Shown in pieces: positions 14,665-63,492 of a stretch of 64,000 bases of DNA (position 1 is the first letter of the stretch; each line of letters begins with the position of its first letter). The stretch comes from a virus (taxonomy: Duplodnaviria > Caudoviricetes): the IMG/VR virus record IMGVR_UViG_3300027278_000003, one strand, 5' to 3'. Below the pieces are notes generated by a model, which worked only from the letters and a program-made list of their open reading frames with translations, was not told where the DNA came from and searched no databases. The translations under genes were made by a program, and so were the position numbers.

Positions 14665-14693
14665 TTGACATAATGGACGAATCACTCTATACA
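14665..14693 (+). promoter_or_regulatory. sigma70-like promoter with CGAATCA
   Basis: TTGACA-17-TATACA. Confidence 0.75.
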
Positions 14694-14704
14694 TATATAT
14701 GTAA

Positions 14705-15112
14705 GTGATAAAGGACATGAAAATGAACACTGTTGTAGATACCGTCGCAGCCATCGCAGATTCATTCGAATACTGGGGCAAACAGCAATCCGCACTGGGT
14801 TATGAATCAATCTGGTCAATTTACGATGCTGGTAACGTAGACCTCGACTTTGAAATTTTCAATAACAAAATGCGTCAAGTGCGCTATGAATATATTCGTC
14901 CTGATGCAACGACCGAAGAATTAATGACAGACCTACGCGATGGTGGAAAGCGTTCATCAGCAGAAGTTACGATGTTTGCAACAGACGGTTCTGTTAAGTC
15001 TCTTTGGTTCGCTGCCGAATCTTGCATTCGTCAGAGCGGTACACATCATCGCTATATCGAAGATTTTGAAATGCAAGAAGATGGTTCTCTTATGCTAATC
15101 ACAGGTTCGTAA
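14705..15112 (+). CDS. Hypothetical protein
   Basis: ORF behind a GANTC promoter. Confidence 0.7.
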   Translation: MIKDMKMNTVVDTVAAIADSFEYWGKQQSALGYESIWSIYDAGNVDLDFEIFNNKMRQVRYEYIRPDATTEELMTDLRDGGKRSSAEVTMFATDGSVKSLWFAAESCIRQSGTHHRYIEDFEMQEDGSLMLITGS

Positions 15113-15405
15113 TGAAAATCATACATTACTATCGCTATGACTCATATGTTGCCGAAGTTTATGGTCTGCCATTAGCAGAGATTGAAACTCGGTATATTCG
15201 TGGTGATTATCCTATTGCAGATGATCTTAGTCGGATGGCGTCAATGAGTAAAATGTACAACGCAGGCAAAGTATGGCGAAAGATTGATAACGAACCTATA
15301 ACAATAATTAAATCGCGTGATGGAAATAATGAGTTTGACGAACACGAATTCATTCAAATGCTATTCCTTGCAGAAATTGCAGGACCAGTAAGCCTAGGTG
15401 CATGA
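15112..15405 (+). CDS. Hypothetical protein
   Basis: TAATG coupling. Confidence 0.7.
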   Translation: MKIIHYYRYDSYVAEVYGLPLAEIETRYIRGDYPIADDLSRMASMSKMYNAGKVWRKIDNEPITIIKSRDGNNEFDEHEFIQMLFLAEIAGPVSLGA

Positions 15406-15746
15406 TGGAAAAATGGCAGAAGCAACTTATCAACGGTATGTATGGTATAAAAAAAGGTGAGATGAATATTGTGTCATATGGTGGGCGTGGTTCTGGCAAG
15501 TCGTTATTATTACAAAAATTCATTGAATCATTTCAAGCACAAACCAAACTTATGGAACAATGTATCGAAAAAGGCTATACAACAGTTGTCATTAACCCAT
15601 CCCAAATGACCACTGCAAATCGTAATGCAATGATTGAATGGTGCAAACAAAACTGTGAAAAAGATTTCAGTTCATTTGTAGCGGCTTATGGATTCTTCTT
15701 TTTTGAAAGCCAAAAGGATGCGGAGTTCTTTGCACTAGTTTGGTAG
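15402..15746 (+). CDS. Hypothetical protein (dispersed small-protein family, C-terminal F..DA.FF.L.W)
   Basis: ATGA coupling; contains GGRGSGKS. Confidence 0.65.
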   Translation: MMEKWQKQLINGMYGIKKGEMNIVSYGGRGSGKSLLLQKFIESFQAQTKLMEQCIEKGYTTVVINPSQMTTANRNAMIEWCKQNCEKDFSSFVAAYGFFFFESQKDAEFFALVW

Positions 15747-15769
15747 TTACGATTTTTTCTCCTAAAAAT

Positions 15770-15777
15770 GATAAATA
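15770..15777 (+). promoter_or_regulatory. T4-like late promoter motif GATAAATA
   Basis: Upstream of 15813. Confidence 0.6.
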
Positions 15778-15812
15778 CAGTTGAGGTCTGATATTATCAG
15801 AGGAGATTAAAA

Positions 15813-17324
15813 ATGATATTTCCAATTATTACCTTTATGGTCGCAATTTGTATTGCGTTCATCGCAGGATGGTTTTCAATCGCTGGTCTTATGGCGATTT
15901 TTGCCGCCTCTGCAATACCAGTTGCCATCATGGCTGGCGCACTTGAAGTAGGTAAACTTGTTTCCGCTTCATGGGTATATCGTAATTGGAAGAGGGCACC
16001 GTTTCTACTGAAAAGCTACCTAACAATGGCTACAGTAGTTCTTATGTTCATTACATCTATGGGCATTTTTGGCTTTTTGTCAAGAGCGCACTTAGAACAA
16101 GCTGCACAGGGACAAGAAAATGCAGCACGTATTGAACGTAGTGAAAATGATATTCTCAGAAATGAAGAATTGATCACTCGCACAGAAGCAAAAATCGAAA
16201 AACTGGATAGTGAATCTGCAAATGATACAAGTGCAGTACAAGCACAAATCGATGCAGAACAAGCACGTATGGATCAAGCATATGCACGTATCCAACCAGC
16301 AATTGATGATCAAAATGCTATCATTGCAAGTGAAAACTCAAACGAAGATGTTCAAGTTTACATGGACCAAATCAAAAGAGTTGACGAAAAACTTGATTTA
16401 ATTCAACAGTATGTTTCAAACAATCAAATTCGTGAACTTCAAGGTCTAGTTGGCGTTCCTCAAGATGGGAACTACGGTTCACAAACTGCATCCGCAGTTG
16501 ATCGTTTCCGTACAAATCAACTTGCAGAAAAACAACGTCTACAAGGTGTAATTGAGCAACTACGCAATTCAGTTGATAGTGATGCAGTTATTGCAGCACG
16601 TGCGGAAATCGCACGTTTGCGTTCTATTGCAGAAGTTGAAGTTGCGACTTCACAGGAAACTATTAGTCGTTTGAGACAAGAGCTTGCATCAAGTGCAGAG
16701 ATTGACAACACAGCAGAGATTGAACTTCTAATTGCTAAAATTGGCGAGACAGAAAGTGCTATTGGCGTTCTACAGGACGAAAAGTTTGCACTAGAAAGTG
16801 AAATTCGCAAACTTGAAGCAGAAGTTGGCCCAATCAAATACATCGCTGAATTAGTTTATGGTAATACAGAGCGTGATACTATTGATGCAGCCGTACGTTG
16901 GCTTATCATTGTGTTTATTTTTGTGTTCGACCCACTAGCTGTTCTTCTACTAATCGCAGCAAACTTTAGCTTCCAGAACCGCAATGAAGGCGGTAGACAG
17001 GAAGAAATTTTTGATGTTCTTTTTTCTAAAAATCATAATAACGATGAAAAATCACTTGACAAACCGACCTCAATGAGTGATAATATAGTTATTGAAACAC
17101 CAAAAGAAACAGATGTGGTAGTGGAAAATAAAGATTTAGCAGAAGTTCGTGCAGGCAAAAAAGAGTATGTACTTCGTGAAAATGCTGCAAAGTCAGTAAA
17201 TATCGAAGACGTAGTTGACAGTGCATCACCAGAAGCATTAGAAAAAATGCAGAAGGCGCTTGAACGAAAGCTAAATACAGAAGCAGTTAAGAAATCTGGT
17301 TGGCTAGACGACCTAAACAACTAA
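15813..17324 (+). CDS. Membrane-anchored coiled-coil protein with peptidoglycan-binding-like motif
   Basis: N-terminal TM helices, long heptad region, LQ..VGV..DGNYG.QT..AV motif, C-terminal TM (IVFIFVFDPLAVLLL). Confidence 0.7.
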   Translation: MIFPIITFMVAICIAFIAGWFSIAGLMAIFAASAIPVAIMAGALEVGKLVSASWVYRNWKRAPFLLKSYLTMATVVLMFITSMGIFGFLSRAHLEQAAQGQENAARIERSENDILRNEELITRTEAKIEKLDSESANDTSAVQAQIDAEQARMDQAYARIQPAIDDQNAIIASENSNEDVQVYMDQIKRVDEKLDLIQQYVSNNQIRELQGLVGVPQDGNYGSQTASAVDRFRTNQLAEKQRLQGVIEQLRNSVDSDAVIAARAEIARLRSIAEVEVATSQETISRLRQELASSAEIDNTAEIELLIAKIGETESAIGVLQDEKFALESEIRKLEAEVGPIKYIAELVYGNTERDTIDAAVRWLIIVFIFVFDPLAVLLLIAANFSFQNRNEGGRQEEIFDVLFSKNHNNDEKSLDKPTSMSDNIVIETPKETDVVVENKDLAEVRAGKKEYVLRENAAKSVNIEDVVDSASPEALEKMQKALERKLNTEAVKKSGWLDDLNN

Positions 17325-17334
17325 TCGAGGAAAA

Positions 17335-62126: not shown

Positions 62127-63205
62127 AACAACTATCGTCTCACTGTTGGTATGATGAAAGTAATGCCGTTGTTCTCGGAGTTGCTAGTTTTGATAGTGAT
62201 CGGGTATACCACGCGGTTAAACAGTTTAGTGATAATGAAAAACTTACAGCTAATACCGATTTGGTTCTTCTCCAGGCAGAGGAAGGCAACCTATCAAATA
62301 TGCTTACTAATCTATTGTTGGAAACTTTAAAAATAGGTGATACTAAATTTAGGAACGTATATGCAATAAACGATTCAGCAAATCTACATACGATCATACA
62401 CCAATTCAACAAAAATAATTATACAAATGTACTACATGGTGGATCTACCGAGTTCAACTTGCTTTGCCGTAGCTTTGATTACCATTGTAATAGATTTTAT
62501 AGAAAAATAAATGTGATGCCAGAACGGCATTTTGTTAATCTAAATGGCGTACCTAAATATTTTAGAGCTAGGATCGTAGATGACCTGATGAACAACAGAC
62601 TACTTCGCTATACATTTTGGAGTTGGAATAAGAGAAATTTTACCAGCGACATGAATATACGTTTTGATAATTTGAAGCAGTTTGATCCAAATATAGAGAA
62701 GAATATTGATGCATCTGGAGTTACATTAGCGACAGGTGAAGATTCCCAAGAAAAATTACCAATGGAATATCAACTGGCGCTGATTGACATTTTTGCTGAA
62801 AGTATCCCAGATAATTTTGGTGAGATATTCATAACCGAAAAGACGTGGAAACCATTGCTAGGAGAAAAACCATTCCTTGGATTCAATGAACGACATTATT
62901 ACAAAACACTACAGAGTTACGGAATACGGTTGTATGAAACGTTGTTTGATTATTCATTTGACGAAATTGAAGATCCGGAAGAACGGTATTTGGGTTACAT
63001 AGAAAATATAATACGTCTTGGAAACATGCCACTTGAAGATGTACACACGTTGGTTCTAGCAGAAGAAGAAAATCTTCGTTTAAATCGCATCACGTTAGAA
63101 AACTTAAATCCGCAATTGCCAGAAAAACTACAACCGTTTGCAGATTCTCTGGATCAACAATCCCGCCATCATACGTTGAAACTTTGGTATGATACAAAAT
63201 TTTAA
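62123..63205 (+). CDS. Hypothetical protein (ITEKTWKP family, possibly glycosyltransferase-related)
   Basis: TTGA-coupled TTG start; FITEKTWKPL...PF, YETLFDYSFD. Confidence 0.6.
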   Translation: MKQLSSHCWYDESNAVVLGVASFDSDRVYHAVKQFSDNEKLTANTDLVLLQAEEGNLSNMLTNLLLETLKIGDTKFRNVYAINDSANLHTIIHQFNKNNYTNVLHGGSTEFNLLCRSFDYHCNRFYRKINVMPERHFVNLNGVPKYFRARIVDDLMNNRLLRYTFWSWNKRNFTSDMNIRFDNLKQFDPNIEKNIDASGVTLATGEDSQEKLPMEYQLALIDIFAESIPDNFGEIFITEKTWKPLLGEKPFLGFNERHYYKTLQSYGIRLYETLFDYSFDEIEDPEERYLGYIENIIRLGNMPLEDVHTLVLAEEENLRLNRITLENLNPQLPEKLQPFADSLDQQSRHHTLKLWYDTKF

Positions 63206-63237
63206 CAAAAAAAATAAATAAAAGTAGAAGATAACAC

Positions 63238-63266
63238 TTGACGAATCACTTCACAAGTGCTATATT
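63238..63266 (+). promoter_or_regulatory. sigma70-like promoter with CGAATCA overlapping the -35
   Basis: TTGACG-17-TATATT. Confidence 0.7.
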
Positions 63267-63299
63267 AAGAGAATAGAAACAAAGGATACGAAACTTTCA

Positions 63300-63392
63300 A
63301 TGAAACAGTCATATGGACATAAGCAAATTATTAGCAACAACATCCGTTGGTGCCAGTTTATGTATGGCTGCGGAGGGAGTTTCGGTTTGTAG
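63300..63392 (+). CDS. Short leader-type peptide, 30 aa
   Basis: MKQSYGHKQIISNNIRWCQFMYGCGGSFGL, between a promoter and a terminator. Confidence 0.4.
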   Translation: MKQSYGHKQIISNNIRWCQFMYGCGGSFGL

Positions 63393-63422
63393 GTAGTAAT
63401 ACTCACAAGTTATTTTAACGAA

Positions 63423-63462
63423 GCGCCCCCTAGAAAAAACTTTCTAGGGGGCGTATTTTTTT
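63423..63462 (+). terminator. Intrinsic terminator
   Basis: GCGCCCCCTAGAAA-AAAC-TTTCTAGGGGGCGT followed by T tract. Confidence 0.85.
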
Positions 63463-63463
63463 C

Positions 63464-63492
63464 TTGACGAATCAATATAAAGACGTTATATA
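63464..63492 (+). promoter_or_regulatory. sigma70-like promoter with CGAATCA overlapping the -35
   Basis: TTGACG-17-TATATA. Confidence 0.65.

Follow-up and report, generated by a model that had tools for sequence, protein, structure and literature searches.

The stretch analyzed here (the window) comprises 64,000 nucleotides and corresponds to the minus strand of positions 133,712-197,711 of a 342,181-bp IMG/VR virus record, a contig with 39.1% GC and a CheckV completeness of 92%, which is labeled G000 where it is compared with related records. Along the window lies a series of promoters that share a GANTC-containing heptamer, MGAATCR, hereafter the box. Judged by their sequence, they are early promoters of the sigma70 type in a marine, T4-like jumbo phage. 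The original prediction had listed 12 of them, and all are present at the coordinates it gave, ten with the box in the spacer between -35 and -10 (spacer type) and two with the box abutting TTGAC (-35-abutting type); the 2 to 3 nt it had reported between the end of the box and TATAnn also proved right. One spacer-type site, at 33958, had been overlooked, and the window total is thus 13. The sites and the annotated genes among them are as follows, in window numbering, with the box given as the heptamer and ORF denoting open reading frame.

14665-14693, plus strand: box promoter TTGACA-N7-CGAATCA-CTC-TATACA, box at 14678-14684, upstream of the ORFan at 14705-15112
32410-32437, plus strand: box promoter TTGACA-N6-CGAATCA-TGC-TATAAC, box at 32422-32428, with the PNK phosphatase-domain gene downstream
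32472-32921: PNK phosphatase-domain gene (PF25109, E=2e-29)
33958-33986, plus strand: box promoter, box at 33971-33977, within the ORF at 33417-34043 and upstream of the kinase gene
34043-34579: PNK-kinase-like AAA_33 gene, with matches to AAA_33 and to a PNK-kinase PHROG
34729-35859: T4 Rnl1-like RNA ligase gene, between box promoters
35877-35904, plus strand: box promoter TTGACA-N6-CGAATCA-TGC-TATATT, box at 35889-35895, lying between the Rnl1-like ligase gene and, downstream, a 79-aa ORFan
46984-47012, plus strand: box promoter with N8, box CGAATCG at 46998-47004, centered at -18, followed downstream by a small ORF and by the GreA/GreB homologue
47326-47907: GreA/GreB transcription-factor homologue (PF01272, PF03449), in the unit that begins at box promoter 46984
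47911-47939, plus strand: box promoter, box at 47924-47930, upstream of a SleB-like cell-wall hydrolase gene at 47974-48651 (PF07486)
54338-54365, plus strand: box promoter, box at 54350-54356, the first in the cluster of the small-gene region
55481-55509, plus strand: box promoter, box at 55494-55500, right after a terminator-like hairpin at 55455-55473, an arrangement like that of promoter early stem-loops (PeSLs)
55883-55911, plus strand: box promoter, box at 55896-55902, upstream of a 50-aa ORF
56086-56114, plus strand: box promoter, box at 56099-56105, upstream of a 97-aa ORF
56486-56514, plus strand: box promoter TTGACT-N8-AGAATCG-AC-TATATT, box at 56500-56506, followed downstream by a glycine-zipper protein gene and then by a tRNA-Arg/Leu/Met array at 56882-57129
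63238-63266, plus strand: -35-abutting box promoter TTGACGAATCA, box at 63242-63248, GAATC at about -30 to -26, driving a short unit with a 28-codon ORF
63464-63492, plus strand: -35-abutting box promoter TTGACGAATCA, box at 63468-63474, upstream of a tRNA array at 63737-63980

The general layout is (A-rich)CTTGACA-N6/7-CGAATCR-N3-TATAnn-N6-GTA, and its core matches the rhizobial sigma70 consensus CTTGAC-N17-CTATAT. In the window, TTGAC-N15-19-TATA occurs 23 times versus 4.4 ± 2.1 times in shuffled sequences, and 13 of the 23 occurrences contain MGAATCR. The heptamer as such is not over-represented (30 copies in the window versus 37.5 expected), so the signal lies in its placement and not in its frequency. 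Throughout the phage genome there are 24 strict TTGACA-N6/7-[box]-N2/3-TATAnn sites, which together with the two N8 sites (46984 and 56486) make 26 spacer-type sites; all of them have the sigma70 core TTGACA-16/17-TATAnn and lie on the same strand, with none on the opposite one. The -35-abutting form, TTGACGAATCR, is found on that same strand four times genome-wide versus 0.2 expected.

We numbered positions with the -10 hexamer at -12 to -7 and the conserved GTA at +1, the predicted start. This GTA, which stands 6 nt past the -10 in 21 of 24 sites and is absent from promoter 33958, probably marks the transcription start. On this scale the GANTC centers fall at -19 (20 sites), -18 (3 sites) and -28/-27 (5 sites), and no other position from -40 to +18 holds more than two. 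At the fixed offset, 24 of 25 boxes read CGAATCA or CGAATCG; the first base is C and rarely A, the center is A, and at the last base A outnumbers G. Other good sigma70-type promoters of the phage, such as those at 20008, 29372 and 45381 and the tmRNA gene's own promoter at 11336, carry no box, so the box defines a promoter class. A MotA-like nature of this class was ruled out, since every member retains the TTGACA -35 and no MotA box takes its place.

Some members of the class resemble promoter-terminator cassettes. Several copies are near-identical over about 50 nt (for example CGAATCATGCTATATTAATAGAGTAGTCAAGAGAG, which recurs at window 35877, at 54338 and in six more places of the genome), and some directly follow terminator hairpins, as in PeSLs (PMC2839356, PMC4122927). 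Clear hairpin and promoter pairs are 55455-55473/55481 and 63423-63454/63464, and the 45 nt upstream of promoter 35877 fold at -19 kcal/mol and are terminator-like. An upstream fold of -10 kcal/mol or stronger is found at only 6 of the 24 box sites, while the repetition and the ORFan context known from PeSLs are present. It might be argued from these features that the box is functionless and that the heptamer is merely carried along as PeSL-like promoter-terminator cassettes recombine within and between genomes. We regard this as very improbable, because the flanking N6/7 and N3 vary freely while the box is constant, because genomes ranging over 34-45% GC keep the box, as does a lineage whose capsid protein is only 36% identical, and because a second discrete box position exists in a different promoter context (TTGACGAATCA); moreover, the published PeSL promoters have no spacer box.

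As the original prediction had described, and as the Pfam and PHROG matches bear out, the box promoters serve small ORFans, the RNA-repair module and tRNA operons. The ORFans begin at 14705, 35935, 54395, 55535, 55937 and 56142, and the first of them (14705-15112) matched neither Pfam nor PHROG. In the RNA-repair module (32472-35859), PNK is split into separate phosphatase and kinase genes. The genes behind the box promoters fit an early class transcribed by the host RNA polymerase. A search of the phage for sigma70 region 2 (PF04542) found no match. A search of the ESM Atlas with the GreA homologue gave no pointer to the host.

Several further features were observed around the tRNA loci. The short unit between the last two box promoters (63272-63454) contains the 28-codon ORF MKQSYGHKQIISNNIRWCQFMYGCGGSFGL and ends in a terminator with a 14-bp stem (63423-63454) just upstream of the tRNA-operon promoter. 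A TilS-like PP-loop ATPase gene (PF01171; 57479-58072) adjoins tRNA-Met(CAT) genes at 57053-57462, and the proximity of such an enzyme to CAT-anticodon tRNAs suggests a phage-made lysidine tRNA-Ile2. At 59658-59858, ARAGORN gives two tRNAs of unusual length whose anticodons are odd, namely Ser-ACT (90 nt) and Phe-AAA (96 nt), only the first of which is supported by Rfam; they may contain insertions or be miscalls.

GcrA and CcrM form the textbook epigenetic cell cycle module of Alphaproteobacteria, in which GcrA reads methylated GANTC. The GcrA consensus is TGATTCG, or more broadly YGAKTCK, and the methylation sites of GcrA-activated promoters are "narrowly centred around -20" (Haakonsen 2015, PMC4647560). 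Upstream GcrA boxes are centered at -20±1 and -30±2 on the DNA face opposite RNA polymerase, and the PcsM-derived cryo-EM scaffold reads TTGACA-N6-CG(m6A)ATC-N5-TATAAT on its non-template strand (Wu 2023, PMC9976885). The phage CGAATCA is the exact reverse complement of the top GcrA consensus TGATTCG, and the positions at which the phage box is conserved or variable coincide with the three degenerate ones of the GcrA motif. Relative to the predicted transcription start site, the phage box centers at -19/-18 (23 sites) and -28/-27 (5 sites) agree with the published GcrA positions; because the two are 9 bp apart, which is about one helical turn, they lie on the same helical face. The box also occupies the same strand as in the PcsM scaffold, 1 bp nearer to the -10.

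Evidence on the host comes from a permuted, two-piece transfer-messenger RNA (tmRNA) gene of the alpha type at window 11332-11726 on the plus strand (tag ANTNAAPAMAKLAA), which was recognized by RF01849 (91.7 bits), RF04321 (101.8 bits) and ARAGORN. In calibration, RF01849 matched only Caulobacter among 14 control genomes, and among five cultured phages it matched only Sinorhizobium phage Phosso and none of the Vibrio and Pseudomonas relatives. An alpha tmRNA is also present in 7 of 25 tested records with the same promoter class. Because of this tmRNA, the host of the phage is probably an alphaproteobacterium. CcrM is conserved in Alphaproteobacteria, SAR11 included, except for Rickettsiales and Magnetococcales, and gcrA and ccrM are generally co-conserved in the class. 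As side observations, the tmRNA tags of relatives read ANNNYAPEMALAA, ANANYQPEMAMAA, ANDNYQPEMAMAA and ANNNFAPVDFAIAA, and the phage encodes a ClpX homologue at window 17335-18573.

The distribution of GANTC points in the same direction. The phage has 657 GANTC sites versus 1036 expected under a third-order Markov model, an observed/expected ratio (O/E) of 0.63 (0.56 at first order), and GANTC is the most depleted among the 16 XYNY'X' palindromes. GANTC is also denser between genes than in coding sequence, with a density ratio of 1.76, the highest among ten motifs tested. The same paired bias, depletion overall with enrichment between genes, has been reported for CcrM-bearing Alphaproteobacteria (Gonzalez et al. 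2014). Depletion recurs in G041 (O/E 0.66), a relative that likewise has no PF01555 methylase gene, whereas G007 and G034, each with its own PF01555 methylase, show little (O/E 0.86) or none. This contrast is compatible either with CcrM-linked selection or with restriction avoidance. One might then ascribe the bias to a HinfI-type restriction-modification system of the host in place of CcrM and GcrA, the promoter sites being tolerated leftovers or targets of methylase protection. The depletion in the two genomes without the methylase gene speaks for such an origin, but it gives no account of the fixed position, the fixed strand and the conserved flanks inside promoters, and with about 650 GANTC sites persisting, avoidance is far from complete; we give this explanation hardly any credence.

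Beta-class N6/N4 DNA methylases were observed in several phages with box promoters: L127:1339-2205 (G007), G036, L128:1342-2886 (G034) and L125:1444-2358 (G025). The 288-aa methylase of G007 and G036 was considered as a CcrM and rejected: its best PDB match is CcrM (6pbd; E=3e-21, 79 bits), but the match covers the catalytic domain only, the CcrM C-terminal domain is missing, and the specificity is not callable.

The major capsid protein of the phage is T4-type (PF07068, E=4e-81) and shares 66-70% identity with its counterparts in Rak2/PA5oct-like jumbo phages and in Sinorhizobium phage Phosso. When window positions 54000-58000 were compared with cultured phages by megablast, there was no match and thus no close cultured relative. 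A sequencing-run search found the full-length phage in many marine metagenome runs, while for runs from algae and aquatic metagenomes the share of its sampled words was only about 0.3. The runs listed came solely from these three kinds of metagenome, and no RNA dataset was among them. Outside the box promoter units we observed a complete PrkA/DUF444/SpoVR operon of the YeaG-YeaH-YcgB type (window 30-4759), whose PrkA is 66% identical to enterobacterial YeaG, and auxiliary metabolic genes for an M17 leucyl aminopeptidase (22685-24091), an IMPDH/GMP-reductase family enzyme (49731-50897) and a pyridoxal phosphate-dependent ornithine/diaminopimelate/arginine decarboxylase (60996-62126).

The promoter class is widespread among uncultured phages. 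Its pattern occurs in at least 113 IMG/VR stretches, and the matches also share the A-rich run upstream of CTTGACA and GTAATCA..GAGAG past the -10. Box promoters number up to 23, 18, 17, 13 and 11 per record, always on one strand, versus 0 or 1 in controls; most carrier records are pieces of genomes about 350 kb in size, and the box is present in genomes of 34-45% GC. The class spans two T4-like lineages, since G034 (145 kb, 95% complete), which has four box promoters and the alpha tmRNA, encodes a major capsid protein only 36% identical to that of the phage. In G041, a complete 342,607-bp genome with terminal repeats and a capsid protein 87% identical to the phage's, a query of TTGACA with any GANTC returned 21 sites at the same offset; 20 of the 21 fit YGAKTCK in either orientation, against 25% by chance, and they include CGATTCG three times and TGATTCG once.

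Five mutually independent agreements, namely heptamer identity, the two positions, the strand, the alpha-type tmRNA and the GANTC bias, therefore favor the explanation that GcrA reads the box and that the phage borrows an epigenetic cofactor of its host. We assign this a rough probability of 0.58. The GcrA proposal had already been made in the original prediction, and the five agreements lend it partial support; a part that did not hold is the suggestion that the phage might encode GcrA, for a PF07750 search of the phage found no such gene.

That absence is itself one of several points that weigh against GcrA as the reader. Likewise, a search of the phage for a CcrM-family methylase (PF01555) and a search for gcrA in 50 records with the same promoter class found none. 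A phage that encodes no methylase depends on the CcrM of its host, and its packaged DNA may be little methylated; unmethylated sites are bound poorly by GcrA (PMC4647560). The near-consensus -35 and -10 might need no activator at all. A scan of GTDB contigs with AACTTGACA-N6/7-CGAATCR-N2/3-TATA returned eight matches in unrelated metagenome-assembled genomes, about the number expected by chance, and gave no host lead.

The remaining points concern which phages carry the class. When the 63-nt promoter cassette was compared with cultured phages by blastn, only chance-level matches were obtained (E ~6), and exact and relaxed pattern searches of nine cultured phages (Atu_ph07, Phosso, Vibrio 2.275.O, PA5oct, Mosig, Cr30, HTVC008M, phiM12 and phiCbK) gave control-level counts. 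Seven of these (Cr30, phiCbK, phiM12, HTVC008M, Mosig, Atu_ph07 and Phosso) are phages of Alphaproteobacteria, so the box class is not general to such phages; and all carriers tested for a capsid gene are T4-like. Both facts leave room for a reader that belongs to the phage lineage. According to this explanation, the reader is a factor peculiar to the T4-like group, which is injected together with the DNA or produced very early, or else RNA polymerase itself touches the box through sigma region 3 or the beta' zipper, and the likeness to GcrA sites is coincidental. Extra conserved positions are indeed known in phage early promoters, and the common initial transcribed region in the cassette, GTAaTCAAGAGAG, suggests a design inherited within the lineage. 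However, it would then have to be by accident that these phages combine the top GcrA heptamer, the two positions allowed for GcrA, the strand of PcsM and an alpha-type tmRNA. The intact consensus -35 excludes sigma appropriation in the MotA/AsiA style, no candidate reader was identified, and the G041 boxes, which tolerate an A-to-T change at the center and one true inversion, are better fitted to a reader of a near-palindromic methylated GANTC than to a reader of an asymmetric site. It seems that a lineage-specific or direct reader is possible but doubtful.

If GcrA is the reader, host GcrA would ride on sigma70 domain 2 of RNA polymerase, and its DNA-binding domain would dock on the box from the DNA face opposite the polymerase. 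Docked in this way, it would help the holoenzyme to load and to open the promoter, and the early units of the phage (ORFans, PNK/Rnl1 RNA-repair genes, the GreA homologue and tRNA operons) would gain an edge through unmodified host machinery. We infer that the box GANTC is N6-methylated by host CcrM and that early transcription is thus tied to the methylation state. That infection is gated by the cell cycle or by epigenetic state is a speculative extension, which we consider unlikely. An equally tentative proposal is that the phage uses its own GANTC methylation as a timer or sensor, in a manner common to a widespread marine and freshwater clade of T4-like phages that infect Alphaproteobacteria: activation of early promoters through GcrA would require methylated DNA, be it parental or methylated by CcrM in a particular phase of the host cell cycle, and newly replicated unmethylated copies would be silent. 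Such a timer would imply a replication-coupled early shut-off, or an infection success that depends on the cell cycle phase.

Should GcrA indeed read the box, abundant uncultured marine jumbo phages would employ a sigma70 cofactor that reads methylation in their earliest transcription, and the host cell cycle or methylation state would have a route to gate infection. The box promoters would also provide a cis-regulatory signature that predicts alphaproteobacterial hosts of uncultured phages, as well as a collection of strong, naturally occurring GcrA-box promoters for use in biochemistry.

Among known systems, the middle promoters of T4 have a MotA box at -30 in place of the -35 and require the phage proteins MotA and AsiA. 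In T4 and in the phage alike, the promoter class is defined by an additional element ahead of the -10, the target of a cofactor of the sigma70 holoenzyme, which in the phage would be GcrA; the phage promoters differ in keeping the -35 intact and in having the additional element in the spacer. The PeSLs of T4-type phages (Arbiol 2010, PMC2839356; Comeau 2014, PMC4122927) share with the phage the repeated near-consensus sigma70 early promoters, which are located in plastic parts of T4-like genomes ahead of small ORFans and often just past a stem-loop. However, the published PeSLs (RB49/phi1, T4/PST and KVP40/nt-1) consist of -35/N17/-10 with no conserved spacer element, whereas the phage has a 7-bp box fixed in the spacer and a clear hairpin upstream of only some copies.

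The phiCbK-like Caulobacter phages are likewise tied to the alphaproteobacterial GcrA module, but phiCbK brings its own GcrA homologue (a PF07750 gene, 88.5 bits) and showed no box promoter class, whereas in the present phage the cis sites occur without a gcrA gene. In the literature searched, phage promoters built around GcrA boxes have not been described. With the GcrA/CcrM promoters of Caulobacter crescentus (PcsM, ctrA P1), the phage promoters have in common the sigma70 -35/-10 core, a GANTC within TGATTCG/YGAKTCK, centers at about -20 or about -30, and the strand of PcsM. Unlike them, the phage promoters lie on phage DNA of about 39% GC and not on the host chromosome, have near-consensus -35 and -10 elements and show no box in the GcrA zone from +5 to +30; unlike C. 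crescentus, the phage lacks both gcrA and ccrM. By sequence and geometry, the box promoters of the phage are best regarded as a probable variant of the already known GcrA-type promoters.

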